Translations under genes and position numbers: made by a program
The notes under the pieces: model-generated
What the model saw: the letters and a program-made list of their open reading frames with translations, nothing else
Told to the model about the DNA's origin: nothing
The model's database searches: none
Shown: piece by piece, positions 3,564 through 32,000 of the stretch
Numbering within the stretch: position 1 is the stretch's first letter
Layout: each line of letters starts with the position of its first letter
Source of the DNA: Acinetobacter wanghuae
GTDB lineage: Bacteria > Pseudomonadota > Gammaproteobacteria > Pseudomonadales > Moraxellaceae
Reading direction: 5' to 3'
Assembly (NCBI RefSeq): GCF_009557235.1
Contig: NZ_CP045650.1
Span: 1,680,001-1,712,000, forward strand
Length of the DNA: 32,000 bases

Positions 3564-3591
3564 TTTCTAAGATGCCTACATGGCAGTGAAC
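3564..3591 (-). repeat. Single aberrant repeat with c>a at 3572, which is G20>T in crRNA orientation, the last stem base at the Cas6f cleavage site.
   Basis: Sequence reads tttctaagAtgcctacatggcagtgaac. It is the only repeat seen with this change, and the ORF track shows FLRCLHGSE instead of FLSCLHGSE. Confidence 0.9.
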
Positions 3592-9623: not shown

Positions 9624-9625
9624 AA

Positions 9626-10636: not shown

Positions 10637-10664
10637 GAGTATTTTTCCTTTTATAAAGTTTCAA

Positions 10665-12799: not shown

Positions 12800-12811
12800 T
12801 TCAACCTCCCT

Positions 12812-16210: not shown

Positions 16211-16215
16211 AATGC

Positions 16216-17329: not shown

Positions 17330-17411
17330 AGCTTTAAGTTTATTATCAATTTAACCAGCACACAAAAGTCATAATTTTATTCCTTTTATTTAATGGTTCC
17401 TAATCATAATT

Positions 17412-18399
17412 TTAATTAACCCGAATCCTGTTTAAGCCGATGACTCCATAATTTGAATTGTTGGCTTATTTTTATGGATCAATTGATATGCACACAAGGA
17501 CGCGTAAATCCCTCCTAGAAATCCATGAACACTACGTGCTTTGCTTGTCACTAAATTGTACTGACCTTTCAACAAACTGAATAAAGTCTCTATCTTATTA
17601 CGCTGTTTTAAGTGATATTTATCTGACTCAGAAAGTTGTGTAGCCTGCATATTTTTTCGATGATAGGTAATTAAATCAATGCCTTGCTCTTTTAATCTAA
17701 TCTTCAGTTCTTGACTAATATAGCCACGATCTCCATACAGCTTTGCTTCCATCTCTTTAACGAGTCTCTCAACCATTTTTATGTCAGCAACATGTCCATT
17801 CGATAAAGCAGAACAAGCAATTTCACCAAATTGGTTCATTGCAATGTGCAATTTACAGCCATAAAACCAGCCCATTGAACTTTTACCACGAGATGTAATT
17901 TTAGCTAAAGATTTATGGCGTTGAATACGTTGATTTTTACAAACTGGCAAAGTCGTTGAATCAATCCATAAATATTGTGTACCTTGGTCTTTCATCAGCA
18001 CCACATGTAAAGCGTGTAGAGCCAATTGGTGCATATTGATCAGATGAATCATCCTTTGATAGCAAGGCAAATACTTAAATAAATGGTTTTTATCTTCTTT
18101 TAACCAAATGAAAAATGCTTTGAAATTATTGAAATGAGAACATTTGTACCAGATCGCGATAAAACAGATTTCTGAAATGGTTAAATGAGCAGTTCTGATT
18201 CTTAAGGAACGATTACTTTGCTTAAGAAAATTCCAATAGGTTGCTTCAAATTTGAGAAAGAAATCATCAATTAAGCAGAATAATTCGGTACTATTAAACA
18301 TCGGGACTAGAGTTGTGAGTTTTGTGTGGTAACTCAACTGATGGCTCTAGTCCTTCTATTTTTCAAGTTAATTTCTTATCCGCGATTCAGGTTAATTAA
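17412..18399 (-). mobile_element. IS982-family insertion sequence, copy 1 (988 bp)
   Basis: Terminal inverted repeats: TTAATTAACCCGAATCCTG at 17412 and TTAATTAACCTGAATCGCG as the reverse complement at 18399. It has a single transposase ORF. Confidence 0.8.
17432..18337 (-). CDS. IS982-family DDE transposase (TTG start as drawn)
   Basis: 301 aa with the N-terminal LIDDFF motif, YGDRGYIS and RNKIETLFSLLKGQ motifs typical of IS982-family transposases. Family assignment is from memory of these motifs. Confidence 0.75.
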   Translation of the reverse strand: MSYHTKLTTLVPMFNSTELFCLIDDFFLKFEATYWNFLKQSNRSLRIRTAHLTISEICFIAIWYKCSHFNNFKAFFIWLKEDKNHLFKYLPCYQRMIHLINMHQLALHALHVVLMKDQGTQYLWIDSTTLPVCKNQRIQRHKSLAKITSRGKSSMGWFYGCKLHIAMNQFGEIACSALSNGHVADIKMVERLVKEMEAKLYGDRGYISQELKIRLKEQGIDLITYHRKNMQATQLSESDKYHLKQRNKIETLFSLLKGQYNLVTSKARSVHGFLGGIYASLCAYQLIHKNKPTIQIMESSA

Positions 18400-18758
18400 T
18401 GTATTTTTAGTTCTACTTTAAGCAACATATCGATAACTACTTAAGTAACACTGTCACAACTGAAGGCTATAACCTCCCTGTGTTTTAAAGTAGATTTCTG
18501 ATCTAAGATTTGCATTAAAATATTTCTGAAACTGATACAAGAATTTCAATTTTCCTGAATGACGCACCGTTAAAATCAGTCTGACAAAAATCAGCCGCTG
18601 CGACAAATCAGGTGCGACAATAAAGTTTAAGCTATTGTTTATATTTAAATAAAAAAAATTCAATAAATATAAAATCGAAAAATATTGCTCGATTTTTCGG
18701 GAAACGATTTCCTTAGTGGGAGTCTTAGTAAATTTATACATTTTTTTATGAGAACAAA

Positions 18759-18941
18759 GGTAACTTAGGTAACATCCGTGCCATTAGTGTGTTTTAGATG
18801 TTCCCCTTTAAAAGCTACAATATTATTAGGGTAACATTTTAAATCACATTAAAATGTTACCCAGATTTCTTAGTCGATCCGTTAAGGTAACAGGCTATAA
18901 CTGTTCATTTTCAATACTGTTACCCAAGTTACCTATGTTAC
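18759..18941. repeat. Iteron cluster (RGGTAAC core, 7 full and 1 partial copies on both strands), including a perfect 14-bp inverted repeat at 18829-18862. Candidate replication origin.
   Basis: GGTAAC at 18759, 18768, 18830 and 18886. GTTACC at 18856, 18919 and 18928. GTTAC at 18937. GGGTAACATTTTAA-6 nt-TTAAAATGTTACCC at 18829-18862. The cluster straddles the 3' end of the helicase gene. Confidence 0.6.
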
Positions 18942-21354
18942 TTTCTGATTCAGGAGGATTCCAATTCAAGATTGATGCTTTAATGACATACATTTTCGTT
19001 GTTTTATCATTAATATTTGGCAATCTAATAGTTTTGAGATGCTTCTTACCAGAATCACATATTAAAAAGTTATACTCAGACAAGAGCTCTAATACTCTTC
19101 GGGTGATTAAACCTTTACAGAACTTATTATCAAAATCTTCAGGCAGGATGCAGAAGACTTTTTCACCATCGTGTATTTTATGATAACCAAGCTTATTCGA
19201 AACACGTTCATTCTTGGTATGAGCACTATCGACTTTTTCAAACCCTACACTCTCACTAAGCATCAATTTAAGACGTGTAAATATTTCTTTGATTTCAGTC
19301 CTACTGTCATATTCAAAATGGTATAGCCAGCGATCAAATACTTCTAGCACAGCATTAAGTGCTGTGCCTTCTTTCCAACCTGTAATTCCTGCAATGGTTG
19401 CCGCTTCTCCAGCTGCAGCAACAAGAGCAAAGTTATTTGCCACGCGTTGAATATGGCCTTTTTTTGATTTGTTAGTGAATAAAGGTCTATGTATCTCTAA
19501 GAAGTCATTTAATTCTTTGAATCTCTCTAAGTGTTCAGTCGTTAAATACTCTAACCACGCATCACCTGCAACACCGTAGTTTTGAGTAATGCGTTTTTTT
19601 AAATCAACCGCTTGCTTAGTAGCATCTTCAGCGAAGTCTATTGTTGAAAAAATCCCATAATGCGAACAATCAATATCGATTTCCGCCAAACGAATCTCTT
19701 GTCCCAATTTCACCTCTTGCCCTTGTTCTCTCATTATTTCTTTTAGGCTTTTTTCACCACTTGATAAGAATATTAGATTCCATATACGCGAAGATTCAGT
19801 TGTTAATTTCTTATTCATACGTGATTTCCCCGCACCATTGGCAAGCATATAGATGATATCGCCTAATTCTTTTGCATCCGCAATCTCACCTATTTCATCC
19901 AATGCTAAAAGGCCATCATTGTGCATATAAGCTGTATGCTCTAATGCATTACCAGTAGATTTCCATGAACAATTAAAGTCATTAGGATTTCCCCATACTG
20001 AGCATGCCAAGTTGAGCGCTGTACTTTTTCCTTTTGAGGACGCACCTTTAAAATGGAATCCAAATCCTTTTTGGTTCAGTGGGGCTATAACCTGACCTGA
20101 AAATGCGGTACATAATGCAAAAACTAAGTAACTATGCGGTTCAATGCATCTAGACACTTGCTCCCGCCATTGATCAAGTGTTCCCTTAGACTTATACCTA
20201 TTGTCTAATCCAACTGTCGCTTGATATACAATGAGATCTTGAGAAACACCAAAAGTTTTATGAGGTAAGACATAACATTCATCATTCCAACCCACTCGAT
20301 TTACACATAGTGCATATCTTTCAGTTTGGTAATTTCCAAGATAGCATTGAAATAATTCACGCCCTCTCTTATCAGTCGCGATACTTACGCCTTTATTGGC
20401 TAAAAGTTTACGCAAATCAGCTCCATCGGTTTGGAATAATTCTTTCGAGAAAGCCTGTGAATGGTTGACATGATTTAGATCATGCCAATCAAGTAATATC
20501 CCCCAATTATTACTTGACGTATCACGGGTATGCGCTTTAACGAGAATTGGACTGCAAATGTATTTATAATTATCATCTTTATTATTATTATCTAAAAAAA
20601 ACACACCGTCTTTCCTGATATAAAATAAACCATTCTCCCATTTCATAGGCTTTGCTATGTGACCTTTAGATAAAATACCCTGATCACTCAGATTGTTAAT
20701 TGAATTATATAAAAAACACTCCACCTCACCTAAAGAAGCGTATTGTGTCAAATCGCAGTCAAAACCATTTTCGTAAGGAACCAACAATCTGACATCTGTA
20801 TTTTGCTCTAATTTTGAAAATTTAAACTTATATTCGGGTCTAACGGGTAAATAGAGCTTCTTATATCCCGCTTGAGTTAATTGACCTATTACATTATCAA
20901 TTTTCTCAATTTCATATTTTTTCAGGTCTCTCACATCGGTATTAAAGCTTTGAGGGATAACTAAAACCACAGTAAAGCTAGTTTGAGAAATTTTAAAAAA
21001 AGTTTCAAAACAATATGTTATGACTACAGGCTGATCTTTTTCGAGTTTTCCACTATAAGCAAACCCATTGATATATCCTTCTGGAGACAAATCAATTTGT
21101 TTTCCCTTTTGTAATTTTACACATTGCAATAACTCTGAATAAATATTGAAAATCGGTAAAATTATAGGACTATTCTCAGATATCTCAGATGGATCATCAA
21201 AGAGATTCAAAATCTGATTTGGACTTCCTATTTGTTGGATCACTTCCAATTTTCCATACAAAGGATCCGTCATTTCTAATTTAGTGCAACGTGAAAGAAT
21301 GTCATGCGGATCAATGGTGGAAAATTTTTGATTGTAGAACTCTTTCATTTGCAT
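18895..21354 (-). CDS. Large replication protein with an SF3/P-loop helicase domain (DUF927 / P4-alpha / D5-like primase-helicase class)
   Basis: 819 aa. Walker A GASSKGKST, Walker B LLALDEIGE, then LIFLSSGE. Its start overlaps the stop of the upstream AlpA-like gene by 10 nt. The context is typical of integrative satellites and islands. A primase domain could not be recognised by eye. Confidence 0.65.
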   Translation of the reverse strand: MQMKEFYNQKFSTIDPHDILSRCTKLEMTDPLYGKLEVIQQIGSPNQILNLFDDPSEISENSPIILPIFNIYSELLQCVKLQKGKQIDLSPEGYINGFAYSGKLEKDQPVVITYCFETFFKISQTSFTVVLVIPQSFNTDVRDLKKYEIEKIDNVIGQLTQAGYKKLYLPVRPEYKFKFSKLEQNTDVRLLVPYENGFDCDLTQYASLGEVECFLYNSINNLSDQGILSKGHIAKPMKWENGLFYIRKDGVFFLDNNNKDDNYKYICSPILVKAHTRDTSSNNWGILLDWHDLNHVNHSQAFSKELFQTDGADLRKLLANKGVSIATDKRGRELFQCYLGNYQTERYALCVNRVGWNDECYVLPHKTFGVSQDLIVYQATVGLDNRYKSKGTLDQWREQVSRCIEPHSYLVFALCTAFSGQVIAPLNQKGFGFHFKGASSKGKSTALNLACSVWGNPNDFNCSWKSTGNALEHTAYMHNDGLLALDEIGEIADAKELGDIIYMLANGAGKSRMNKKLTTESSRIWNLIFLSSGEKSLKEIMREQGQEVKLGQEIRLAEIDIDCSHYGIFSTIDFAEDATKQAVDLKKRITQNYGVAGDAWLEYLTTEHLERFKELNDFLEIHRPLFTNKSKKGHIQRVANNFALVAAAGEAATIAGITGWKEGTALNAVLEVFDRWLYHFEYDSRTEIKEIFTRLKLMLSESVGFEKVDSAHTKNERVSNKLGYHKIHDGEKVFCILPEDFDNKFCKGLITRRVLELLSEYNFLICDSGKKHLKTIRLPNINDKTTKMYVIKASILNWNPPESESNIGNLGNSIENEQL

Positions 21355-21530
21355 AACTCCTCAATATCAATAAAACGCCAGCGAAGACGATTACCAATTT
21401 TGATCGGTTGTATGGGACCACTCCCATCCATTGCCCACTTACGCAACGTTTGTGGACGTAAACAAAGCAGCCTTGCTGCCTCATTCGTTGAAACCAATAA
21501 AAGGTTTTTCTGAGATGTATTTTTCAACAT
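21345..21530 (-). CDS. AlpA/excisionase-family helix-turn-helix protein. The likely ATG is at 21530. The ORF track extends to a TTG at 21596.
   Basis: Sequence STNEAARLLCLRPQTLRKWAMDGSGPIQPIKIGNRLRWRFIDIEE matches the AlpA/Xis-type MerR-like HTH pattern. The ~61-aa size is typical, and the gene is coupled to the helicase gene. Confidence 0.7.
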   Translation of the reverse strand: MLKNTSQKNLLLVSTNEAARLLCLRPQTLRKWAMDGSGPIQPIKIGNRLRWRFIDIEELCK

Positions 21531-21624
21531 AGCGCATTTCCAATATATTCTTGTCAACCACAATGACTGACTGAATTTATTCTTCAATGGAAACAAATAT
21601 AGAGTAAAACACAGCTTTTCATTA

Positions 21625-21701
21625 TTTTTATACTACTATTATTTCATTAATTTCAATTACATAATTATTTTTATACTAGTTTAGTTTTTTATACTAGTTT
21701 A
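21625..21701 (-). promoter_or_regulatory. Three copies of TAGTATAAAAA (minus-strand orientation) upstream of the AlpA-like gene. Two are a perfect 16-bp direct repeat. Candidate operator/promoter.
   Basis: tttttatactagttta at 21668-21683 and 21686-21701, and tttttatacta at 21625-21635. Each full copy contains the palindrome ACTAGT. Confidence 0.4.
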
Positions 21702-22387
21702 TTTATAGCACCCATCTTTCTGACTTCATCCCAACGGTTTTTAAAAGTGATCCTATTAGATTCGAAGTATTTATGATAATCACTTGAATCTAATTTCTCA
21801 AAAACTGCATTTTTCAATCCCTTACTACCTCTTCCTTCTTTATTAAGAATTTCTATTTCATCTTGACTGAAACTTGATAGGATTAATTGAATAATCCTTC
21901 TAGCCTCTGCGACCTGCTCTTTCTTATTTGAAATCGATAAATCTCTCTCAACTAAATTCAAGTCCCTAGCTAACTTATTCAAATGACGATATTGAATAAA
22001 ATAAAGACTCATATGAGTCATAAGTAAATTCCATTCTGATAAGAACGATATTTTCTTATAATCATATTTATCAATATCATTCAAAAACTCATCGCTATCG
22101 ATTTCTCCGAGAGTTTCAAAAGCTATCTTGAATGAACTTTTAGGCCGTTTTAGCTCACTTCTAATTTTTATCAATATTGTGATATACATTTTTGTTAGAT
22201 CTTTTTCTTTTATTGAATTCAAGCCTTCTAATTCATTAATATGAAGCATATGAGATGCAATTAAACAAATTGCCTCCTGAAGTGAGTAAAGTACTTGCCT
22301 TTTTCCTCGAATTTCCAAAATTTTTCTTTTATGTGATTCTAAAATCTGACCAGATTGATGTATTGAATCAAGTAATTCATTAAACAT
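21689..22387 (-). CDS. Hypothetical protein, 232 aa, predicted helical, no recognisable motifs
   Basis: Long ORF in an AT-rich island with AGGA ~13 nt upstream of the ATG. No family recognised. Confidence 0.55.
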   Translation of the reverse strand: MFNELLDSIHQSGQILESHKRKILEIRGKRQVLYSLQEAICLIASHMLHINELEGLNSIKEKDLTKMYITILIKIRSELKRPKSSFKIAFETLGEIDSDEFLNDIDKYDYKKISFLSEWNLLMTHMSLYFIQYRHLNKLARDLNLVERDLSISNKKEQVAEARRIIQLILSSFSQDEIEILNKEGRGSKGLKNAVFEKLDSSDYHKYFESNRITFKNRWDEVRKMGAINKLV

Positions 22388-22401
22388 AATAATTAGTATC
22401 C

Positions 22402-22423
22402 TGCTACCTATTTGCTACCTATT
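22402..22423. repeat. Perfect tandem 11-bp repeat TGCTACCTATT x2, between the terminator and the RBS of the 232-aa gene
   Basis: Read directly at 22402-22412 and 22413-22423. Confidence 0.8.
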
Positions 22424-22438
22424 ATTTTTTTATTAAAA

Positions 22439-22469
22439 AACCCCTTAGGATAAAAACTCCTAAGGGGTT
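22439..22469 (-). terminator. Rho-independent terminator immediately 3' of the tRNA fragment
   Basis: CCCCTTAGGA (22441-22450) pairs with TCCTAAGGGG (22458-22467) around a 7-nt loop. The stem is followed by a T-run on the minus strand. Confidence 0.75.
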
Positions 22470-22477
22470 GATTTATT

Positions 22478-22522
22478 TGGTGGGCCCACACAGACTTGAA
22501 CTGTGGACCAACGGATTATGAG
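22478..22522 (-). pseudogene. 3' 45 nt of a tRNA with a CAU anticodon (Met, or Ile2-lysidine type) lacking its 5' half. Recombination att core of the integrase.
   Basis: Minus strand reads CTCATAA-TCCGT-TGGTC-CACAG-TTCAAGT-CTGTG-TGGGCCC-A-CCA: anticodon loop, 3' anticodon stem, variable loop, T arm, acceptor 3' strand and CCA. The upstream TAGAA cannot pair with TCCGT, and no GGGCCCA 5' acceptor is present. Confidence 0.8.
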
Positions 22523-22674: not shown

Positions 22675-23919
22675 ATGAATTTTACAAAACCAGCAATTGA
22701 AAAACTAGAATGCCGATCTGACTCAAAGCCTTCTTTCTATTGGGATAGCTCTACCAGTGGTTTTGGGGTAAAAGTAACCCCAAACAATAAAAAGACATAT
22801 ATCTTTCAGGGACGTGTAGGGTCTACAACACGACGTATAACTATTGGGAATATTAAAGATTGGCGACTAACTGAAGCTCGTGAAAAAGCTAAAGAGCTTG
22901 CTGTAATGTGTACGCAAGGGATCGACCCCAAAGTTGAAAAAAATAAACGCATTCAATCAGACCAAGAATATCTTAAGACTGAAAAACGAAAAGAAACTTT
23001 ATTCAAAGAAGCTTGGAATATTTATCTTGAAGAAAATAAAGAAAGATGGAGAGAACGCACCTACCTCGATCATTTATTACTATCAAAAGGTGGATTTGAT
23101 GAAATCAAAAAATTTCACTATAAACCTCAGCCTATTTTTGAATTATTAGAAAAAAGGTTATCAGATCTTGATAACAACTTTTTTTCTGAATGGCTTCAGA
23201 ATAATAATTACCGAGAAACTACAGCTAGTAAAGCTTTCCGTCTCGTTAGAGCCTTTTTAAATTGGTGTGAAGAAGATGATAGATTCCAAGGAATAGCACC
23301 TACAAATGCAATTAAATCTAAAAAAGTAAGATCCAAAGTAAAGCCAGTTCAAGCAAGAAAAGATTGCCTCCTAAGAGAACAGTTAGACATATGGTTCTCT
23401 ACCGTTCTCAATTCTCAAAATAAGGCCTTGGCTACATTTTATATTTGTTGTCTATTAACTGGGGCCAGAAAAGATGAGTTTCTATCACTTACATGGGAAG
23501 ACTTAGATTTTAGGTGGAAAACGATCCATCTGAAGGATAAAGTTGAAGATAATGGGCGTATTATACCTATGACCAAATACGTAGAAAAATTACTACGTGA
23601 CTTAAAAAAAACCAGCGATTCATCTTATATATTTAGCAGTAATACCTCTGCGACGGGATACATCGTTAATCCTTACAAAGAGTTTAAGAAAATCTGTAAT
23701 GAAATAGATATTCAGCTAACAATACATGGTCTTAGACGTTCATTTAAATCATTGGCAGAATGGGTAGATATTCCTGTAGGTGTCACTGCACAAATATCTG
23801 GACATAAACCAAGTGCTTTAGCTGAAAAGCACTATACCGTTCGCCCCATGGATATGTTGCGAGGGCATCTACAGAAGTATGAAAACTGGGTATTAGAACA
23901 AGCTAAAATTAGTTTTTAA
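22675..23919 (+). CDS. int: P4-type tyrosine integrase
   Basis: 414 aa. N-terminal arm-binding (DUF4102-like) pattern SGFGVKVTPNNKKTYIFQGRVG...LTEAREKAKE. Catalytic residues TGARKDE (R), HGLRRS (HxxR), GH and Y in EKHYT. It lies adjacent to the tRNA fragment. Confidence 0.9.
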   Translation: MNFTKPAIEKLECRSDSKPSFYWDSSTSGFGVKVTPNNKKTYIFQGRVGSTTRRITIGNIKDWRLTEAREKAKELAVMCTQGIDPKVEKNKRIQSDQEYLKTEKRKETLFKEAWNIYLEENKERWRERTYLDHLLLSKGGFDEIKKFHYKPQPIFELLEKRLSDLDNNFFSEWLQNNNYRETTASKAFRLVRAFLNWCEEDDRFQGIAPTNAIKSKKVRSKVKPVQARKDCLLREQLDIWFSTVLNSQNKALATFYICCLLTGARKDEFLSLTWEDLDFRWKTIHLKDKVEDNGRIIPMTKYVEKLLRDLKKTSDSSYIFSSNTSATGYIVNPYKEFKKICNEIDIQLTIHGLRRSFKSLAEWVDIPVGVTAQISGHKPSALAEKHYTVRPMDMLRGHLQKYENWVLEQAKISF

Positions 23920-24014
23920 AAATTAAACTCCATTCTCTCAGAGGAAGAAAATCTTGCATTTCTATATTCTTCGATTCATAGCAATTTCGCTATGCACGCG
24001 AAGGATAATACTTC

Positions 24015-24122
24015 ATGCACATTCAATACAACCGCCCACCATCATCCCATCCTGGCCCTGGTGGCAATTGGCCAAGTACAACAGGTCGCCCATCAGGTGG
24101 TGGTCGTGGTAATGCCAAATAA
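24015..24122 (+). CDS. Possible 35-aa Gly/Pro/Ser-rich micro-ORF (MHIQYNRPPSSHPGPGGNWPSTTGRPSGGGRGNAK) in a ~61% GC patch
   Basis: ATG at 24015 with AAGGA 9-10 nt upstream, and TAA at 24120. The local GC spike sits in ~30-35% GC surroundings. It could instead be a structured RNA. Confidence 0.3.
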   Translation: MHIQYNRPPSSHPGPGGNWPSTTGRPSGGGRGNAK

Positions 24123-24125
24123 TCA

Positions 24126-24147
24126 TTAAGGGGAGCAATCCCCTTAA
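24126..24147 (+). other. Stable hairpin: 9-bp stem TTAAGGGGA/TCCCCTTAA with a GCAA tetraloop, no T-tract
   Basis: Read directly. It lies between the micro-ORF stop and the ATG of the 75-aa gene. Confidence 0.6.
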
Positions 24148-24160
24148 TCCAGGATTACCG

Positions 24161-24388
24161 ATGAAAAAGTACAGTAATGACAAAGAGCTGAACAAATTTA
24201 TTCGGCAACTTATTAAGGATGGTGTCGCATCTTTTAGACCTGGTAAAAAACATGATTTTTTGCTTGTAAACCAAATACAGAAGATTACGATACCAGGTAC
24301 ACCTAGTGACCGAAAAGCCTATTTAAACTTTAAGACAGATATACGCAGAGCTTTACAATGCCAAAGAATACCTTTCCAACAACTATAG
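24161..24388 (+). CDS. 75-aa protein with a HicA/YcfA-like pattern (tentative)
   Basis: Helix KELNKFIRQLIKDGV, then GKKHDFLLV, KITIPGTPSD and the YLNFKTDIRRAL helix, mirroring the HicA layout (helix, GSHxxF strand, TVPxH strand, helix). By-eye comparison only. Confidence 0.35.
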   Translation: MKKYSNDKELNKFIRQLIKDGVASFRPGKKHDFLLVNQIQKITIPGTPSDRKAYLNFKTDIRRALQCQRIPFQQL

Positions 24389-26625
24389 AAATTGTTCGTG
24401 ATTTATTTAGTCACATGGATACCAAGAGCCAACTCTCGGAGACAGACTCTAAACACTTAGATGGTTCATCAAACAAACTATTCACTTCACACTATGATGT
24501 AGACTTATTTTTGGAGCAGTTGTGCCCAAAAGAGTTTTCAGAACGTACAAATTTGCAATTTATAACATTGCTTAAACGCAATGTGTTAGAGCGTTATAAT
24601 GCAATGCTATTACATGCTCGCTTAACTGCCTTGATGAATGTTGATTCTATCCGAAATTCACTATGGTCGAATTACTTAGTTCCATCTCTTCATCAACTCA
24701 TAAGCTTTTGTATTACACAAATGGGGATCACTAAGCACTGGAAAGGAGAAAACTTTATTCAAGAAAGCTTAAGCTATCTAAAAAATAATGATGAAAACTT
24801 TGCTAATTTTTGGAAAAGTGATGATTTAAATCCTGATGAGAAAAATTACATCAGCAAATTTGGTCGTCCAGATGCCTTACCTACGCCGTCGACCTTAAAA
24901 CGCCTATTTTTGACCAATACGGAATCATCGCAGACGCATTATGAATTGTTGTGTTTTGCACGCTTGCTACAAGCCTTAAAAATTAAATATGGGTTCTCAT
25001 TGCAACATGGAAACTTTATTCAGTTTTTAGCGGAACAACATAATCAAAAATTGAAATCACACCGTATTTCGGAACACGATATACAAGCATTGACATTTAG
25101 AGCCATGGCTATTGCCAATGCACAAACACATTTTCCTTTTCTGATGGAGATCCCATTTTCATATCAGAAGTTAACTCAGGTGTTTTTTGATAGCACGCAC
25201 GTCAAACGTATTGATCAAACTGATACTCGTTTAGCATCAATGGTATATAGCTCAACAGGTGAAACAACGTTTCAACTAAATATATTGATGATAAACCAAA
25301 TCGAAAAGTACCTTACCGAGCACCAAGAAGTAGCTCACTTACTGCCATATATTCATTGGGCTAAAGCGATTAATTTGGTATATCAATATCAATTTAAGGA
25401 AGCACTCGCTGAATATGAACTATGCTTGGATGGTTTATTATATCGTGATATGCGTTATTTAGAAGTACTACTAAATGAGATGCTTTGCACTGCTTCACTC
25501 GTGGAGAGCCAAAACAAACTCATTGGAAAGATTTCAAATTTAGCGATCCAATTTGACCTCAAAGTTGGAATATTTGATCCAATTGAGCGCCCTGACCGTT
25601 TCAAAACAGAATTTGTATTTAAAGAATGGGAAAAAGAAGCAACCCTAGTTGGCTTCTTTAAATATTTTACTGCCGATACTTTTAGCGACAAAGGTACCGA
25701 AATTAAGAAATTAATTCCTAAAATCGGCAACCTTACAGTTCCCATGGATATTAGCCCTGACTTTAAAAAAGTGAATGCAAGCATTTACATTGATATTGAA
25801 CAAAGACGTAAATGGCCTCAACTTCACTACTTTGTCGCTATCGGAGATTTTTCTACGGCTAGAAAGCTCATTGAAGCTGGTGCAAACATAAATGCATTAA
25901 CTTCAAATAAAGAAAGTATTGTACTTTTGGCATTGAACCACATTGCCGCTAAATCCGATGGAACGTACGCATTCATCCAATATGTATTCGAATGTGGTTT
26001 TGATAAAGAACTTTTAAATGAGCGTACAGCGAAAAAGCAGACTTGCCCTTTAAACCACGCTATTGAGGAAAATCTACCAAAACTTGCAAAATTGTTATTA
26101 GAGAATGAGGCTAATCCTAATGTTACAGGTCTCTATGGTATTTCCATGCTTTACCAGAATTTAGGTGTGATCGGCCTATTGAATGGTCATAAAGTTGAGC
26201 AAGCAAATGATAAATATCTTGCAGATTCGATTAGACGTCATTCTAACGGTGGTAGCGATATTGAAAGTTATAAGCAACTCCAGAGCCTACCAAGCCATGA
26301 GCCTAGAAAGGTATTATTTGAGGAGGTGAAGCGAATCTCTCTTGGAGACAAGAAGGTTTGCGATGCCTACGAGATTTTCGAGTTACTTTTACAATATGGT
26401 GCCGATCCAAATCAAAATACAGCTCAGTATCCAATAAAAGGCTATACACCCTTCATGCTAGCTGTTGAAAAAGATAATGCTTATGCTGTCGATCTTATGC
26501 TCAAGCATGGGGCTCAATTGGAACAAAGCTATGTAAAAGCAGATGAAGGACGTCGTGTGTTTTTACAGGAAATAGCTGAGTATTCTAAAGCTAATCAAGT
26601 TAAAACATTAATTGGAATTTGTTAA
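24358..26625 (+). CDS. 755-aa protein: unknown helical N-terminal ~480 aa plus C-terminal ankyrin repeats
   Basis: Ankyrin-like units: LHYFVAIGDFSTARKLIEAGANINA, PLNHAIEENLPKLAKLLLENEANPN and YTPFMLAVEKDNAYAVDLMLKHGAQLE. It overlaps the 75-aa ORF by 31 nt. The start is uncertain, with an alternative ATG near 24415. Confidence 0.7.
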   Translation: MPKNTFPTTIEIVRDLFSHMDTKSQLSETDSKHLDGSSNKLFTSHYDVDLFLEQLCPKEFSERTNLQFITLLKRNVLERYNAMLLHARLTALMNVDSIRNSLWSNYLVPSLHQLISFCITQMGITKHWKGENFIQESLSYLKNNDENFANFWKSDDLNPDEKNYISKFGRPDALPTPSTLKRLFLTNTESSQTHYELLCFARLLQALKIKYGFSLQHGNFIQFLAEQHNQKLKSHRISEHDIQALTFRAMAIANAQTHFPFLMEIPFSYQKLTQVFFDSTHVKRIDQTDTRLASMVYSSTGETTFQLNILMINQIEKYLTEHQEVAHLLPYIHWAKAINLVYQYQFKEALAEYELCLDGLLYRDMRYLEVLLNEMLCTASLVESQNKLIGKISNLAIQFDLKVGIFDPIERPDRFKTEFVFKEWEKEATLVGFFKYFTADTFSDKGTEIKKLIPKIGNLTVPMDISPDFKKVNASIYIDIEQRRKWPQLHYFVAIGDFSTARKLIEAGANINALTSNKESIVLLALNHIAAKSDGTYAFIQYVFECGFDKELLNERTAKKQTCPLNHAIEENLPKLAKLLLENEANPNVTGLYGISMLYQNLGVIGLLNGHKVEQANDKYLADSIRRHSNGGSDIESYKQLQSLPSHEPRKVLFEEVKRISLGDKKVCDAYEIFELLLQYGADPNQNTAQYPIKGYTPFMLAVEKDNAYAVDLMLKHGAQLEQSYVKADEGRRVFLQEIAEYSKANQVKTLIGIC

Positions 26626-26635
26626 AATAAGTCTC

Positions 26636-26661
26636 CCCCCTTTAGCTTAAACTTAAGGGGG
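26636..26661. terminator. Hairpin between convergent genes (CCCCCTTTAG / CTTAAGGGGG, one mismatch)
   Basis: Read directly. It sits between the stop of the ankyrin gene and the stop of the 476-aa gene. There is no strong T-tract. Confidence 0.45.
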
Positions 26662-26736
26662 CATTTAGTAAAAAAACTATCATTTTTTACTATCCTTATA
26701 AAACATTCTCACATCACACAATCAACTAATTAAAGT

Positions 26737-28167
26737 TTACTTTTTCAATTTATTGATCTCTCTACTAAAAGTTGATCCAGGTAATCTTAGAAAATGATCA
26801 ACCTGAAAATACATATCCTCTAACCATTTTAAATTTTCATCTGGTTTGTCATGTCTATATTTCCTAACCATAGTTTGAAAAATTTGCTGTGCTAAGCGTT
26901 CATTTTTATTTTTATCTAAATTTTCCATAGTTTTTAAGACTATTTCTAAATAATAAGTTTTTTGGCGTGTATCTATATTATTAGATTGAAGGATTTTTCT
27001 TGTTAAACAACCTAAACAATAACTTGCCTCTTCTACTGCTAATATACTCTTATCGCTATCATATAAATAATTTGAAGCAATAACCCAATCAGAACAATTA
27101 GACACTATATTGTAGACTAGGTAATCAAATTTTAATGGGAACTCTTGCCAAACTTCTGAATTTTGACTTCTGTCAATATTTAGCAAAATCTCGTCAAGAA
27201 AATATTCATAATACATCAACCACATGTGATCATCTATTTTGTTGTATATAGCACTTTTAACCATTACATCAAAAAATTGCAACCCTACAAAGATTGGACA
27301 TTCCCATGGCTCATCTGTGTAACTGAAAGATTCACAATAATTATTATAAAAATTATCTTTCCCTTTTTGGTCTTTTATAAAAGCACATATATAATCTCCT
27401 ATAGGTTTCCAAATATTAGCTTTTACAGCATTTTTAGGATTAGAGAAATAATAATCCAATATAACATTTTCTGGCTCTATACGATAACCAGTTGAATACA
27501 TGAAATGTTGATTATCCTTGAGTTCTCGATATAGTTGACTATTTTCTTTAGCGATAAGATTCTTAAAAAAGTTATCTGTAAACTCATCGATGCGCAACAA
27601 AATTGGGCTAGAAGTTAATTTAAGTGGAATTTGAGGATGTATTTCTACTAAATAAATCATGAATCCTGATGATTTAACTATTTTCTCGATCGATTTATAA
27701 ACTATAGGTTTATAGCCAATTTCTCTAGGTAGAACCGACAAGACCTTTTTTAATAAGTAAAATTTTATTTTACGACACTTTCCAATTTTAATTGGAGGAA
27801 ATTTAAGCATCTCATCAATACTTGGCATTGATTTTTCTTGAATATAGTTATAAAAATTTTCGTATATTGTTACCTTATTAATAATCTTGATAAATTGGTC
27901 TAAATATTTTTCAATCAAATAGCTTAAGATATGATATTTTCTTTCTCTCAATAAACGAGACGACAATTCACTCCATTTTCTATATTGGCTTTTAGGCAAT
28001 CTTTTTCCAAAAATTTTATAACTAAAACCTACTATCATTAAAATAACAAATGTTAATACAGTAGTTTTCTCATCAAAACCCCATAAATATGTAAACGGTT
28101 TAAATCCGAAAACAGTAATTATAATGCTTGAGTAGATTAAAACTAACGCCATTAAAATTAAAAACAA
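26737..28167 (-). CDS. Very AT-rich membrane-anchored protein of unknown function. 476 aa as drawn, possibly extended to 28288 if a frameshift is corrected.
   Basis: N-terminal hydrophobic helices (LILMALVLIYSSIIITVFGF, TTVLTFVILMIVGFSY) followed by a ~400-aa soluble region with no recognised motifs. The drawn start is TTG. The upstream ORF 28100-28288 encodes another TM helix one frame away. Confidence 0.6.
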   Translation of the reverse strand: MFLILMALVLIYSSIIITVFGFKPFTYLWGFDEKTTVLTFVILMIVGFSYKIFGKRLPKSQYRKWSELSSRLLRERKYHILSYLIEKYLDQFIKIINKVTIYENFYNYIQEKSMPSIDEMLKFPPIKIGKCRKIKFYLLKKVLSVLPREIGYKPIVYKSIEKIVKSSGFMIYLVEIHPQIPLKLTSSPILLRIDEFTDNFFKNLIAKENSQLYRELKDNQHFMYSTGYRIEPENVILDYYFSNPKNAVKANIWKPIGDYICAFIKDQKGKDNFYNNYCESFSYTDEPWECPIFVGLQFFDVMVKSAIYNKIDDHMWLMYYEYFLDEILLNIDRSQNSEVWQEFPLKFDYLVYNIVSNCSDWVIASNYLYDSDKSILAVEEASYCLGCLTRKILQSNNIDTRQKTYYLEIVLKTMENLDKNKNERLAQQIFQTMVRKYRHDKPDENLKWLEDMYFQVDHFLRLPGSTFSREINKLKK

Positions 28168-28395
28168 AAAATATAACCAAAAAAAAAATAGAGGCTCTAA
28201 TAAAAAAATCTTGTCTTTTTTCTTCAGACATCAATGTAATTATCGCCACAAAAATCCCTAATACTGTAAATAATCCACTAGCATCCATATTTAAAATCTT
28301 AAAATTAAATCAATAAACTTAAAAAAAATTAATTTGCATATAAAATGATTCAGAACCAGCCCAAATTATATGATTTTTAGGTCAACTTCATATTC

Positions 28396-29383
28396 GTAAT
28401 CAACCCGAATCGCGGATAAGAAATTGACTTGAAAAATAGAAGGACTAGAGCCATCAGTTGAGTTACCACACCAAACTCACAACCCTAGTCCTAATGTTCA
28501 ATAGTACCGAATTGTTCTGCTTAATTGATGACTTTTTTCTACAATTTGAAGCAACTTATTGGAAATTCCTCAAGCAAGATGGCCAACTTTCAAGAATCCG
28601 AGTTGCTCAACTCAGTCTTTCAGAAATTATCTTTATTGCTATTTGGTATAAATCCTCTCATTTCACTAATTTCAAAGCCTTTTTCACTTGGTTAAAAGAA
28701 GATAAAAGCTATTTATTTAAGTACTTGCCTTGCTATCAAAGGATGATTCATCTGATCAATATGCACCAATTGGCTCTACACGCTTTGCATGTGGCGCTGA
28801 TGAAAGGTCAAGAAACACAATATTTATGGATTGACTCAACGACTCTGCCAGTTTGTAAAAATCAACGTATTCAACGCCATAAATCATTAGTCCAAATTGC
28901 ATCACGTGGTAGGAGCTCAATGGGCTGGTTCTATGGCTGTAAATTACATATTGCGATGAATCAATTTGGTGAAATTACCTGTTCTGCTTTATCGAATGGA
29001 CATGTTGCTGACATAAAAATGGTTGAGCAATTAGTTGATGGCCTAAAAGGAAAACTTTACGGGGATCGAGGCTACATCAGCCAAGAATTAAAGCGCAGGC
29101 TGCAAGTTGAAGGTATTGATTTAATTACTTATCATCGGAGGAATATGGAATCTTTTCAACTCAGTGCACCAGATGAATATCACCTAAGGCAACGCAATAA
29201 GATAGAAACATTATTCAGCTTATTGAAAGGGCAATATCATTTAGTGACGAGTAAAGCACGTAGTACTTATGGATTTCTCAGCGGAATTTATGCTTCGTTA
29301 TGTGCATATCAATTAACCCATCGAAACAAGCCAACGATTCAAATTATGGAATCATCGGCTTAAGCAGGATTCGGGTTAATCAA
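28396..29383 (+). mobile_element. IS982-family insertion sequence, copy 2, inverted relative to copy 1 and diverged (~85% aa identity)
   Basis: The ends TAATCAACCCGAATCGCGG (left) and TTGATTAACCCGAATCCTG (reverse complement at 29383) align with the copy 1 ends. It has a single transposase ORF. Confidence 0.8.
28458..29363 (+). CDS. IS982-family DDE transposase (TTG start as drawn)
   Basis: 301 aa, collinear with the copy 1 transposase, with the same LIDDFF, YGDRGYIS and RNKIETLFSLLKGQ motifs. Confidence 0.75.
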   Translation: MSYHTKLTTLVLMFNSTELFCLIDDFFLQFEATYWKFLKQDGQLSRIRVAQLSLSEIIFIAIWYKSSHFTNFKAFFTWLKEDKSYLFKYLPCYQRMIHLINMHQLALHALHVALMKGQETQYLWIDSTTLPVCKNQRIQRHKSLVQIASRGRSSMGWFYGCKLHIAMNQFGEITCSALSNGHVADIKMVEQLVDGLKGKLYGDRGYISQELKRRLQVEGIDLITYHRRNMESFQLSAPDEYHLRQRNKIETLFSLLKGQYHLVTSKARSTYGFLSGIYASLCAYQLTHRNKPTIQIMESSA

Positions 29384-29388
29384 TATAA

Positions 29389-32000
29389 TTAACTCACCCA
29401 CTTATCATCATTCATAGCTAAATTTTTAACTAGCTCAAAAACTGTTGAAACTTTTTCCTGAAATTGTGTCACGTCATAACTTACAGGCAGGTCTTTATCC
29501 AATACTTTTTCAATTTCATCTTTCACTAATGCTTGGGTCTGCCCATCTTTCCACCAGTCTTGAACCAAAACTTTTGGTGTTGTATTGATAAGTGATGTGA
29601 TCAAGTCTTTCGCTGCTAACTTGACCTGCTGTTGCTCATCTTTTGTGAGTTTGTCTTTTAAGAGTAGGTCATAGATTTCTAACTCATCTTCAGTTAAACC
29701 TTCTCTGATATGACGTTGGTCTTCTTCCTGCAACCCTTTTGTGAACTTTTGAATTTCTTCAAACAGTTGTTCAGTCGCCGTAGCACCAGAGTTATAACGA
29801 TCAATCATTTGCTGATAGCGCTCGGCAAAATTAATACGTCCACCATTTTGCTTCAGCATTTGAATGATTTTCTTTTCAAGAAAAGCTCGCATATCCGCAA
29901 TAGCAATGTTCTTGTGCTTGGTTTCTTTAAACTGTTCTTTCAGTTTGTCAAAATCAACTGTGCTTAAATCCCATTTTTGACCATGGATCAAACTATAGCT
30001 TTGCTTAAAATCCTTAACCGACTTCGCTGTATCTGCATCTATAATCACACTTCGATCTAAGAGATCCACAACTGCTACACCTGTTGTTTCAAGATCTTGC
30101 TGTTCAATGGTGGCTTCAATAAATCCATGTAAAAATTGAATTACAGATACTATCGGGCGAGGCTTAGCTAAGATATTAGGCTTACATGCCTCATATAAGG
30201 CAGCAACGGTATTAAAGTGAACATTGAATGTTTTTCGATATTCATCTTTTTCTAGTAACCGATCGGCATATTCACCAAATAAAGTATTCTCTTTAAACGT
30301 ACCGCCATTCTTATTACGAGTTTCTAAGATTTTGTTTAGATTAATATCCTTAGACTCACAATATTCTAGGGTCTTCGTAATCGCTTCATCCAGCATATCG
30401 AAAAGTACGGTTTTATCCTGGACGGGCGCATCTATTTCTCCATCTTCACCAGTGCCTTGGCCGTAATCTTTTAAAGCTGTTTTTAGATTCCTAAATACGT
30501 TGTAGTAATCAATAACTTCACCATTTCTTTTCTCTACAAGCTCGCCGTCGGTATTCTGAATACGATATGACGTTACTCGGTTGGCACGAGCAATGGTTTG
30601 CATCAAGGTATGACCTTTCATTGGCTTGTCTAAGTACAGCGTAGATACCGTTGGCGCATCAAAACCTGTCAGCCACATTGCACAGACGAAAACAAGTTGT
30701 AGCGGATGCGCTGGATCTTTAAAGTTATCCTCAATATCAGCCCCATTCGTATCAACTTTACTCAGGCGGTCAATATGTGTCTGAATATCTAGACCTTGTT
30801 TATCAAAGCGTTCTTTTTCTGCACTCGGATCACTAATGACCACCGCCATTTGCACCGTGCTCATATACTTTTGGCGTTGCTTTAAACGATGTTTTTCAAC
30901 ATCATTTTTAGAGTTATGAATACGTGTTTGTAAATGTTTAAGCTCTTCTTTCCAAAGTTTTGAAACTTTTTCATACATTCGTACAGCCGTAAACTGATCT
31001 ACGGCGACCATCATGCCCTTACCCAAATATCCACGGCGTGGGAAATGGTAGACAATATCTTGGGCAATACGATCTAGACGATCATCTCGTTTAATAACTT
31101 CAAGTTCCGTAGAATACTTCCGCTCAAGCTTTTCTTTTTGTGCTTCGTTTAACTCTTCGTCTTCTAAAATTTCAGCAAGCTCTTCATTCAGATCATCATT
31201 TTGAAGTAATACTTCTGGAACTCGTTTTTCATAGAACAGTGGCAGCGTTGCTTTATCTTCAATTGCCTGTTGGAAGGTATATTCCGAAACATACTCACCA
31301 AACCATTGCTTGGTCTTTTTCTGTTTAAGGATCGGTGTACCCGTAAAAGCAAGAAAATGTGCGCCGTCTAAACCTTTACGCATGTTCTCGGCAAGAGATT
31401 CATATTGTGTACGATGCGCTTCATCGACAATGACAATCACTTCACGCTCAGCAGGATTGAATAGCTGTGGATACTCTTGACCTTTCTCGTATCTGAACTT
31501 TTGAATTAGGGTAAATACAATTTTGGTATTTTGACTGAGTAAGGTGCGAAGATGGGTACTGTTTTTCGGTTGTGCTGCTTCTTTTTCTAAAACTGCTTTG
31601 GTCTGTATAAAGTTTTTATAAATCTGTGAATCCAAGTCTTCACGATCCGTAATCACCACAAAGCTAAAATTACCTGTGACTTTACGATAAATCTTTCTGA
31701 CATAAAAAATCATCGAGAAACTTTTACCAGAGCCTTGAGTATGCCAAAACACACCCAGACGACCTTGTAACTCATCACGCTTTAAAAAGTTTTGAAAGGC
31801 ATGATTAACCCCCAAGAACTGATGGTTCTGAGCGATAATTTTATGTTTTTCATTTTGGAATAAAATAAAGTTTTCAATATAGTCTAATAGTCGCTCAGGA
31901 CGGCAAAGACCACGTAGCAAGTATTCAATACTTGTGCCTTGTTCCTCAATTTCTTCTTTGTTGACCTTTTCTTTTTCTTGATCTACACGCAACCAGTTAA
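29389..32000 (-). CDS. hsdR: Type I restriction enzyme R subunit (HsdR). The N-terminal part lies beyond the right window edge.
   Basis: Helicase motifs HTQGSGKS (I), VDEAHR (II, DEAH), FTGTP (III) and QTIARANR (VI), with a long C-terminal helical region typical of HsdR. The ORF is open to the window end. Confidence 0.9.
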   Translation of the reverse strand, partial: NWLRVDQEKEKVNKEEIEEQGTSIEYLLRGLCRPERLLDYIENFILFQNEKHKIIAQNHQFLGVNHAFQNFLKRDELQGRLGVFWHTQGSGKSFSMIFYVRKIYRKVTGNFSFVVITDREDLDSQIYKNFIQTKAVLEKEAAQPKNSTHLRTLLSQNTKIVFTLIQKFRYEKGQEYPQLFNPAEREVIVIVDEAHRTQYESLAENMRKGLDGAHFLAFTGTPILKQKKTKQWFGEYVSEYTFQQAIEDKATLPLFYEKRVPEVLLQNDDLNEELAEILEDEELNEAQKEKLERKYSTELEVIKRDDRLDRIAQDIVYHFPRRGYLGKGMMVAVDQFTAVRMYEKVSKLWKEELKHLQTRIHNSKNDVEKHRLKQRQKYMSTVQMAVVISDPSAEKERFDKQGLDIQTHIDRLSKVDTNGADIEDNFKDPAHPLQLVFVCAMWLTGFDAPTVSTLYLDKPMKGHTLMQTIARANRVTSYRIQNTDGELVEKRNGEVIDYYNVFRNLKTALKDYGQGTGEDGEIDAPVQDKTVLFDMLDEAITKTLEYCESKDINLNKILETRNKNGGTFKENTLFGEYADRLLEKDEYRKTFNVHFNTVAALYEACKPNILAKPRPIVSVIQFLHGFIEATIEQQDLETTGVAVVDLLDRSVIIDADTAKSVKDFKQSYSLIHGQKWDLSTVDFDKLKEQFKETKHKNIAIADMRAFLEKKIIQMLKQNGGRINFAERYQQMIDRYNSGATATEQLFEEIQKFTKGLQEEDQRHIREGLTEDELEIYDLLLKDKLTKDEQQQVKLAAKDLITSLINTTPKVLVQDWWKDGQTQALVKDEIEKVLDKDLPVSYDVTQFQEKVSTVFELVKNLAMNDDKWVS

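Follow-up and report, generated by a model that had tools for sequence, protein, structure and literature searches.

A probable mosaic: two unrelated accessory modules side by side in an integrative island of Acinetobacter wanghuae

Do neighbouring, uncharacterised genes behind an integrase form one defence system, or do they belong to separate units? This question is raised by positions 23920-28395 of a 32,000-nucleotide stretch of the Acinetobacter wanghuae genome (contig NZ_CP045650.1, positions 1,680,001 to 1,712,000; hereafter the window). A previous sequence-only reading of the window described, between an integrase gene and the second of two insertion sequence (IS) copies, a micro open reading frame (micro-ORF) or RNA, a gene encoding a HicA-like protein, a gene encoding an ankyrin protein (Ank) and a convergent gene encoding a membrane protein, and proposed them as a candidate defence module, with abortive infection as a plausible mode of action. 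All four ORFs were confirmed, the integrase gene does precede them, and they are indeed uncharacterised, as PADLOC v2 reported single-protein matches and no complete defence system. Our analysis nevertheless leads to another view of how these genes are related. With a probability of about 0.6, the block, which lies in the variable arm of an integrative island, is a mosaic of two accessory modules that are independent of each other: a three-gene set (micro-ORF, HicA-like and Ank genes; hereafter the trio) and a membrane-protein gene of the family phrog_13820 (Table 1).

The decisive evidence comes from the comparison of gene content between genomes. The trio was found without the membrane gene in at least nine arrangements, and the membrane gene was found without the trio in at least five types of context. 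In tblastn and blastn comparisons of the window genes with 12 or more trio loci, the two are adjacent only in one closely related island arm, represented by the window, by Acinetobacter sp. YH12100 (L039) and by the metagenomic contigs L020/L021. There, the genes are neighbours, convergent and located in the slot of a defence island, as would suit a common abortive-infection system with an ankyrin sensor, a HicA-like nuclease and a membrane effector; however, these sequences are at least 96% identical and represent a single lineage. At the other membrane-gene loci, no trio gene was detected, either by tblastn (L005/L006) or from Pfam-annotated gene tables and neighbour comparisons (elsewhere). 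Moreover, the homology of the trio with other loci ends at the Ank stop codon, and the membrane gene is frameshifted in two genomes in which the trio is intact. The guanine-cytosine (GC) content also separates the two modules by 10 points (0.369 for the trio vs. 0.273 for the membrane gene). The low GC content previously attributed to the whole block is therefore a property of the membrane gene; the trio is close to the window average (0.374), with 0.349 for the integrase gene and 0.382 for hsdR. Since the four genes do not co-localise in other genomes, the single-system explanation was rejected on synteny, and we consider it very improbable. From these comparisons, the trio and the membrane gene appear to be two independent modules.

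The operon formed by the first module spans positions 23917-26625. In blastn comparisons, its left border falls at 23913-23918 and its right border at 26613-26618 (L001, L008, L009, L011, L022, L036, L039), i.e. within a few bases of the integrase stop codon and in the last four or so codons of the Ank gene, respectively. With such sharp borders, the trio recurs in about 12 contexts in Moraxellaceae. With the Ank protein as query, we retrieved loci from A. pittii (L001-L004), the strains NPDC052428, YH16052 and Marseille-Q1618, A. silvestris, Acinetobacter sp. A2, a Moraxellaceae metagenome-assembled genome (L012), a Logan contig (L022), 220-kb plasmids of A. soli (L036) and YH12100 (L039). 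By tblastn, the micro-ORF, the HicA-like gene and the Ank gene were found together at every locus retrieved in this way. The trio is one conserved unit whose genes are probably co-transcribed.

We then compared the flanks of these loci over 4 kb upstream and 5 kb downstream of the trio. Two types were found upstream, namely the integrase gene or a cluster encoding a TehB-like methyltransferase, a 341-aa protein and a 370-aa protein. At least four types were found downstream: GmrSD-572, a GmrSD-like pair of 640 and 576 aa, a Lamassu LmuACB operon with a 443-aa protein of no assigned function, and the membrane gene. Upstream and downstream types occur in most of the possible combinations. An upstream integrase gene is combined with the membrane gene in the window, with Lamassu in L007 and with the GmrSD pair in L010, and an integrase remnant is combined with GmrSD-572 in L036. 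The methyltransferase cluster is followed, beyond the trio, by the membrane gene in L039, by the GmrSD pair in L008 and by GmrSD-572 in L001 and L022. The trio lies directly beside an integrase gene in four loci, which carry two different integrase alleles. By this comparison, the trio is a constant anchor between two slots of shuffled content rather than cargo itself. The expectation that the integrase-proximal region would be a hotspot held true: the block lies 3' of the integrase gene in the island, and the slot 3' of the Ank gene, which in related islands carries Lamassu, GmrSD variants or a PDC-M01/PtuA-like pair, is a true defence hotspot.

A role of GmrSD as a fourth partner of the trio was considered, as it is convergent and downstream in 6 contexts. 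This candidate was rejected because the GmrSD genes found there are of three or more types and because GmrSD is absent from the window, L007, L009, L012, L034 and L039; it is cargo of the slot. The recurrent divergent neighbour encodes a TehB-like S-adenosylmethionine methyltransferase (191-204 aa) and a 341-353-aa protein with a faint HNH_4 match, to which a 369-370-aa protein of no assigned function is added in some loci (L001, 3924-6733; L008, 2298-5110; L022, 7055-8693; L039, 11096-12733). This cluster could be an uncharacterised modification-dependent system. The 443-aa protein encoded between the Ank gene and the Lamassu operon of L007 (12319-13650) has no match in Pfam, PADLOC or PHROG.

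On a larger scale, the succession of a tRNA-like att remnant, the integrase gene, the trio, the variable slot and hsdRSM can be read as an integrative island. Nucleotide homology with L007 (Acinetobacter sp. NPDC052428) and L010 (A. silvestris) starts at 22474/5, at the CCA end of a tRNA-like fragment, continues through the integrase gene and the trio as far as the Ank stop codon, and picks up again at hsdR. The hsdR product is 98% and 92% identical to the 1096-aa proteins of L007 and L010, respectively, and its gene forms the conserved right-hand anchor of the variable slot; in L039, hsdM-hsdS-hsdR lies upstream. The integrase copies adjoining the trio are 99% identical in L007, 93% in L010 and 50% in L009. 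The tRNA-like fragment, which is situated between the divergent integrase gene and an ORF of 232 aa, was called neither by ARAGORN nor by Rfam and has a homologue in both L007 and L010; it is a probable att remnant at the left end of the island. To its left, the DNA differs from one genome to another, with a DUF927 element in the window and a second integrase gene and HipBA in L007. As homology starts at the CCA end and the DNA to the left varies between genomes, these data suggest that elements were accreted in tandem at one tRNA site.

Table 1. Features of the 32,000-nucleotide window, with positions counted from its first letter
Feature	Position	Strand	Remarks
I-F CRISPR array	21-8877		Very long, up to the left edge of the window
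I-F cas genes	9009-17175	minus	
IS copy 1	about 17406-18398		With DDE_Tnp_1_3 transposase (301 aa)
Integrase-less DUF927 primase-helicase / AlpA-HTH / 232-aa block	18454-22387	minus	
Terminator hairpin	22440-22470		Leftwards of the tRNA-like fragment
tRNA-like 3' fragment	22478-22522	minus	CCA end, acceptor strand, T-arm and part of an anticodon loop reading CAT; read from the sequence
Tyrosine integrase, 414 aa	22675-23919	plus	Arm-DNA-bind_3 1e-13, Phage_integrase 7.5e-13
Conserved trio cassette (micro-ORF, HicA-like, Ank)	23917-26618	plus	Delimited by nucleotide similarity to other Acinetobacter loci
Palindrome CATAGC-N6-GCTATG	23977-23994	plus	In the invariant leader upstream of the micro-ORF
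Micro-ORF, 35 aa, MHIQYNRPPSSHPGPGGNWPSTTGRPSGGGRGNAK	24015-24122	plus	AAGGA Shine-Dalgarno sequence
10-bp stem-loop separating micro-ORF and HicA-like gene	24125-24148	plus	-15.9 kcal/mol, z = -2.85
HicA-like protein, 75 aa	24161-24388	plus	pI 10.3; putative RNase toxin
Ank protein, 755 aa	24358-26625	plus	N-terminal region predicted to be all-helical (1-~470), then ~5-6 ankyrin repeats (~474-755)
Two stem-loops between the convergent genes	26635-26661 (G/C-rich), 26667-26691 (A/T)		z = -3.1
Membrane-anchored protein gene, phrog_13820	26737-28288	minus	Apparently a solo gene
Homopolymer T10 (A10 on the plus strand)	28179-28188	minus	Cause of the frameshift
IS copy 2 (DDE_Tnp_1_3 transposase, 301 aa)	28403-29376	plus	
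hsdR, type I restriction-modification	29389-31992	minus	C-terminus complete; ORF leaves the window

The surroundings of the block had been described as a type I-F CRISPR-Cas system on one side and a type I restriction-modification system on the other. The second half of this description stands, as the island runs into hsdR. On the left, in contrast, cas1 ends 6.7 kb away from the block, past an IS, the DUF927/AlpA element and the att remnant. Similarly, IS copy 2 had been taken as the limit of the block, and it is in fact a simple, later and unrelated insertion rather than an element boundary. This copy, located 6-12 bp past the hsdR stop codon, is bordered by a direct 6-bp target-site duplication (TAATCA, 28397-28402 and 29377-29382), and L020 provides the empty site, with the 3' end of hsdR joined directly to the region upstream of the membrane gene. 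IS copy 1, just past cas1, has a target duplication of its own (TAATTA). A composite transposon or an IS-mediated inversion was rejected because the two inverted copies have separate target duplications, are only 83-91% identical, and because of the empty site in L020.

Further to the left, the satellite-like block without integrase (18399-22470), between IS copy 1 and the att remnant, encodes a 95-aa ORF, a DUF927 primase-helicase (819 aa, 2.9e-76), an AlpA-type helix-turn-helix (HTH) protein (83 aa) and a 232-aa protein of no assigned function. None of its genes was found in the related islands L007 and L010. The CRISPR array comprises at least 147 repeats, the initial 14 of which score 44.8 bits vs. 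41.6, indicating a repeat variant at one end.

The linkage between the trio genes extends to distant relatives. The full trio is kept at 43% Ank identity in L012 and in L034 (P0102), in both cases between msrA and exbD-exbB-tonB, i.e. in housekeeping surroundings. At 29% Ank identity (P0110, L033), the HicA-like gene directly precedes the Ank gene. At 35% identity (P0103, L030), a 35-aa ORF precedes the Ank gene and the pair is located after metH. As these contexts retain the full trio, the HicA-like and Ank genes, and the micro-ORF and Ank genes, respectively, the sequences indicate that both linkages, micro-protein with Ank and HicA-like protein with Ank, are ancient, and that the toxin-like gene can be missing from the set. 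Since L030 keeps the micro-ORF and the Ank gene without the HicA-like gene, this core pair may have a toxin-independent function. In L030, which belongs to a GC-rich genome, the micro-ORF homologue occupies 394-500 and the Ank gene 565-2913, with a hairpin and a T-run in between.

Regarding the micro-ORF, for which an RNA had been envisaged as an alternative, its codon-position pattern indicates a real protein-coding gene under clear purifying selection: variable alignment columns are distributed 5/4/25 over codon positions 1/2/3. In the comparison with L012, a distant locus, the in-frame codon changes are synonymous in 13 cases and non-synonymous in 8; the other two frames, which contain stops, give 2/21 and 1/22. 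The peptide is 77% identical where the Ank protein is only 43% identical, and the L030 homologue shares with it the motif NWPS-x(5-6)-SGGGR-x-N. A non-coding RNA was rejected, Rfam being empty both at the gathering threshold and at E<=1 and the codon pattern being that of a coding sequence. The micro-protein (isoelectric point, pI, 11.7) is basic, Gly/Pro-rich and predicted to be disordered, and gave no match in Pfam, PHROG or PADLOC; the Gly and Pro codons explain the high GC content of its gene (0.528). In the leader, the perfect palindrome could be an operator or an RNA stem of the 5' untranslated region. In the alignment, the distant L012 reads CGCAGC-N6-GCTGTG at this place, T>C on one side being paired with A>G on the other. 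A search of the leader for a consensus sigma-70 promoter was negative. The stem-loop that follows the micro-ORF lacks a T-run after the hairpin on the plus strand. It is invariant in the Acinetobacter loci, and L012 keeps the hairpin with altered stem and loop sequences.

The 75-aa protein is probably a member of a divergent HicA-like subfamily. It matches the PADLOC model PDLC02910 ('HicA-like') with E=1.5e-21 (residues 2-64 vs. 1-61 of 61), its relatives match the same model with 9.8e-18 to 5.1e-28, and a UniRef entry labels the exact 75-aa sequence as a HicA family toxin. Residues G28, H31 and P45-T47-P48-S49 are invariant, H31 being present in 9 relatives. HicA toxins have a dsRBD-like fold, and their conserved histidine at the start of strand 2 is catalytic. 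The AlphaFold2 model of the protein (predicted local distance difference test, pLDDT, 78.8) has an alpha-beta-beta-beta-alpha topology. A Foldseek search with this model placed the HicA chains 6hpb_A (E. coli) and 5yrz_B (S. pneumoniae) in the top 40 of 350,542 PDB chains, although non-significantly. The gene overlaps the Ank gene by 31 nt, and this overlap is conserved among loci.

The Ank protein (QGA11341.1 / WP_153371733.1) has its ankyrin repeats at 489-721 (Ank_2, 1.2e-13; Ank, 1.4e-13; Ank_3, 1.8e-9). Its model has a pLDDT of 66.6, with high values over residues 50-240, and its fold matches are DARPins and ankyrins only, the full-length search being swamped by DARPins. Outside the repeats, Pfam, NCBIfam, PHROG and PADLOC gave nothing for residues 1-470, nor did phmmer against the PDB. 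An exhaustive phmmer search of this region against 1.84 billion cluster representatives returned only 4 full-length clusters, with 99%, 44%, 35% and 29% identity and lengths of 737-782 aa, all of them with C-terminal ankyrin repeats. According to the model, the N-terminal region is a novel all-helical domain. The conservation of residues 7-16 down to 26% identity supports the overlapping start. The match of the protein to PADLOC PDC-M72A (1.9e-13) covers the repeats only (472-598 vs. 217-333 of 392), and no other PDC-M72 component was matched among the window and neighbour proteins scanned. There was no Pfam match to HicB in the 755-aa product.

An alternative explanation would be that the Ank protein is a secreted effector acting against eukaryotic cells, as in Legionella or Coxiella, the small genes being unrelated neighbours. 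Ankyrin repeats are common in such effectors, and NCBIfam gave weak matches to the Dot/Icm effectors AnkH and AnkY. These matches, however, reach only 34.7 and 17.3 bits for a cut-off of 600 and concern the repeats only. In addition, secretion-system genes are present in none of the about 14 contexts, no hydrophobic (signal-like) segment was detected in the protein, and its gene is tightly linked, in a conserved operon, to those of the micro-protein and the HicA-like protein. We regard this explanation as extremely improbable.

We propose instead that the trio would be a HicA-type toxin-antitoxin-like module. The 75-aa protein would cleave RNA in a His31-dependent manner. The translationally overlapped Ank protein, at the position of HicB, would neutralise this toxin and might free it once the ankyrin repeats bind a ligand. 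The 35-aa peptide, basic, disordered and presumably abundant, would modulate the complex, either as a pseudo-ligand binding the groove or as an RNA-binding competitor, and the hairpin after the micro-ORF would lower downstream expression. There would be two possible outcomes, which we rate about equally: the island or plasmid is stabilised by post-segregational killing, or infection is aborted.

The first of these outcomes corresponds to a selfish toxin-antitoxin system devoted to addiction, without phage sensing. Such a role would agree with the position of the trio as the sole constant element between two freely exchanged slots, with its place directly beside an integrase gene in four loci with two alleles, with its presence on the 220-kb plasmids of A. 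soli, and with the hicAB-like gene order and overlap. In L012 and L034, the trio stands alone among housekeeping genes, as selfish toxin-antitoxin systems do. However, the toxin identity of the HicA-like protein is unproven, L030 keeps the micro-ORF and the Ank gene without the toxin gene, and a 755-aa repeat protein far exceeds the needs of a simple antitoxin. The family is also very rare, with its 4 clusters among 1.84 billion representatives, unlike successful selfish systems. Addiction is therefore possible, although on the unlikely side.

For the second outcome, the trio would be an anti-phage sensor-effector in which a phage protein or a small ligand is recognised by the ankyrin repeats, whereupon the HicA-like RNase is released or activated, by analogy with RNase L, whose ankyrin domain senses 2-5A. 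Every Acinetobacter trio locus lies amid defence genes (type I restriction-modification, GmrSD, Lamassu, DarTG, McrBC, PDC-M01), and the HicA-like subfamily is present in the PADLOC library. HicA domains have been predicted to be defensive, and one HicA-containing system has been validated (Gerdes, 10.1101/2023.12.08.570793; DefensePredictor, PMC13092281). Nevertheless, the trio is absent from IMG/VR, its distant members occur in housekeeping contexts and the PDC-M72A match is limited to the ankyrin repeats, which makes this reading unlikely as well.

The second module is separated from the first by a hairpin, as had been noticed; two stem-loops were in fact found between the convergent genes. 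They are a probable bidirectional terminator and lie outside the conserved trio cassette. The encoded protein had been described as having multiple transmembrane (TM) segments, and this holds only for residues 1-95, where 3 hydrophobic segments would form 3-4 helices; according to hydropathy, the rest of the protein (~420 aa) is soluble. We identified 41 homologues (34-98% identity) in Acinetobacter, Enterobacter, Pantoea and Klebsiella, all annotated as 'hypothetical'. Full-length homologues have 509-535 aa (515-516 aa for the intact relatives), and 47 columns are invariant in the family at 34-72% identity. The intact, 98% identical P0001 matches phrog_13820 (1.3e-42, 1-462 vs. 7-445 of 505), which is annotated as function unknown. 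No match was found in PADLOC, Pfam, NCBIfam or the PDB; even at E<=1, PADLOC v2 returned nothing for the window ORFs, P0011 and P0035, and the family profile gave one chance match against the PDB (E=0.59). Small convergent or downstream ORFs (183, 225 and 224 aa) were considered as a conserved partner and rejected. Because these neighbouring ORFs are not homologous to one another, the membrane-protein gene appears from the sequence comparison to be a solo gene.

In the window, this gene is split by a +1 frameshift into the ORFs 28288-28100 and 28167-26737. The sequence-only reading had suspected a defect in a T-tract, and the defect is real: the tract is T10 here, vs. T9 with an intact 516-aa ORF in the 99% identical metagenomic contigs L020/L021. 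A sequencing error is unlikely, since a second isolate genome, YH12100, shares T10 (L039, 5940-5960; 96.8% identical over 4.5 kb); T10 recurs or was inherited. The tract is T9 (gene on) in A. towneri, judged by the 516-aa length, and the gene is in three fragments (306+162+175 aa) in Acinetobacter sp. YH01004. Together, T10 in two isolates, T9 in relatives and the fragmented gene of YH01004 point to lineage-specific ON/OFF switching or repeated loss. A programmed frameshift or a designed phase-variable tract was rejected, as the tract (T9 or T10) exists only in the closest clade and not family-wide: its position reads ATTAAATATTGG / ATTAAATTTTGG in L005 and L017, and the tract is absent in more distant homologues.

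The contexts of the membrane gene are diverse. In L005, a P2-like prophage of A. ursingii, it belongs to a moron cluster that has the gene for the tail assembly chaperone on one side and the tape-measure gene on the other; its neighbours there are SNIPE/T5orf172, DUF4236, Bro-N and HicAB. In L013, a P4-like satellite in Enterobacter, it directly follows the alpha primase gene, beside a pair formed by a retron reverse transcriptase and a TIR protein. In L017, an islet of A. baumannii, it is found with SRA-HNH and NUDIX. Homologues are also carried by seven IMG/VR contigs. The E. coli homologue WP_000501170.1 (515 aa, 37% identity), for which no mention was found in the literature, is intact in 35 out of 5,426 complete genomes and lies between the early-left genes and the integrase gene of lambdoid Stx1a/Stx2c prophages. 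In E. coli 2011C-4251 (L038, 6001-7548) and the Stx phages LC7278xx, the homologue adjoins the integrase gene and is unannotated in the deposited phage records.

The frameshift in the window and in L039 and the fragments in YH01004 might also indicate a decaying, functionless pseudogene, whose position in hotspots would reflect tolerance of foreign DNA. This is improbable, as the family, with its 47 invariant columns, is well conserved at full length in Acinetobacter as well as in Enterobacter, Pantoea, Klebsiella and E. coli, the gene is intact in 35 complete E. coli genomes, and close relatives of the window copy are intact (T9). We propose rather that the protein would be anchored in the inner membrane and would act against superinfecting phages by exclusion or abortive infection. 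Its gene, which moves between moron or accessory positions in prophages, satellites and islands, would be off in A. wanghuae through a T9>T10 homopolymer slip.

Combining these proposals, the mosaic would consist of two immune modules side by side: a HicA-type RNase restrained by the Ank protein, fired by a phage cue and tuned by the micro-protein, and a phrog_13820 single-gene anti-phage or exclusion determinant, which a homopolymer would switch in this lineage and which would be disseminated by prophages (P2-like or lambdoid, Stx-converting ones included), by P4-like satellites and by islands of Acinetobacter. We put this combination forward tentatively and judge it rather unlikely. Several observations weigh against the two proposals themselves. 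The window protein does not match Pfam PF07927 (HicA_toxin) even at E<=10, and only one out of nine relatives does so (E=0.031). Conversely, the PDLC02910 model scores canonical HicA only at E=0.04. The Foldseek matches to HicA structures have E>1, and although GKKH is aligned by hhalign to the GSNH of E. coli HicA, the probability is just 15%. The Ank partner is predicted to be all-helical, unlike HicB, and its binding and neutralisation of the HicA-like protein are a proposal made by analogy. The trios of L012 and L034 lie among housekeeping genes with no defence neighbour, and L030 has the micro-ORF and the Ank gene without a HicA-like gene. Lastly, a defence role of the membrane protein, plausible by context, is guilt by association; neither a fold nor a motif could be recognised in its soluble domain, and the frameshift in two genomes could mean that the gene is dispensable or costly.

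Two uncharacterised candidates thus emerge: the rare and unusual trio operon, and a solo membrane protein of wide mobility. Should the trio function as a HicA-type module, it would represent a HicA context outside the 14 described so far, in which the partner is a large repeat protein and a micro-protein is obligatory, and would offer a tractable case of repeat domains gating small toxins. The micro-ORF would then be an example of a conserved gene of fewer than 40 aa that is only intermittently called by annotation pipelines. As for the membrane protein, it is a single-gene candidate whose seat beside the integrase gene of Stx-type prophages gives it relevance for medical microbiology. More generally, adjacency within a defence island is weak evidence for one system; here it is the anchor that is conserved, with interchangeable cargo as its neighbours.

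Among known systems, the trio is closest in outline to the type II toxin-antitoxin system hicAB (E. coli HicA/HicB, PF07927). Both have a small basic protein of about 60-75 aa with a G-x-x-H motif and an invariant His, for which an alpha-beta-beta-beta-alpha topology is predicted in the trio, a toxin-like gene placed first and overlapping a downstream partner, and a location in mobile or defence islands. The trio differs in that its toxin-like protein falls below the Pfam HicA_toxin model and belongs to a separate subfamily (PDLC02910), its partner is a 755-aa helical and ankyrin protein rather than HicB (RNase-H-like fold with an HTH or ribbon-helix-helix domain), and its HicA-like gene comes after a conserved gene for a 35-aa micro-protein and a hairpin. 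The survey by Gerdes catalogues 14 HicA contexts, with an ankyrin partner in none (10.1101/2023.12.08.570793), and our literature search found neither a link between HicA and ankyrin nor an ankyrin-repeat phage-defence system of this kind, nor did it yield the system behind PDLC02910. PADLOC PDC-M72A resembles the Ank protein in the repeat region only (472-598), which says nothing on the N-terminal domain. The analogy with RNase L consists in an ankyrin-repeat module genetically coupled to a putative RNase, and RNase L chains are among the structural matches of the repeat region; however, this match is to generic ankyrin repeats, the putative RNase of the trio is a separate small protein with another fold, and no 2-5A-like signalling genes are present.

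The membrane protein can be compared with the P2/P4 hotspot systems such as Rst_Hydrolase-3Tm, reportedly described by Rousset et al. in 2022, and with the superinfection-exclusion (Sie) proteins such as P22 SieA and T4 Imm. Like these, the phrog_13820 protein has an N-terminal TM anchor and no conserved partner, and its gene is found in a P4-like satellite, in the tail-region moron cluster of a P2-like prophage, in a lambdoid integrase-proximal region and in an island slot. It differs by the lack of a PADLOC v2 match and by its ~420-aa soluble domain without a recognisable fold. Finally, as in integrative defence islands with anchor genes, a tyrosine integrase lies by a tRNA-like att remnant, a type I restriction-modification system occupies the far side, and cargo is exchanged among species. 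In the A. wanghuae island, however, the middle anchor is neither a housekeeping gene nor part of the element core but the uncharacterised trio operon, which is also carried without the integrase on a plasmid and at housekeeping loci.

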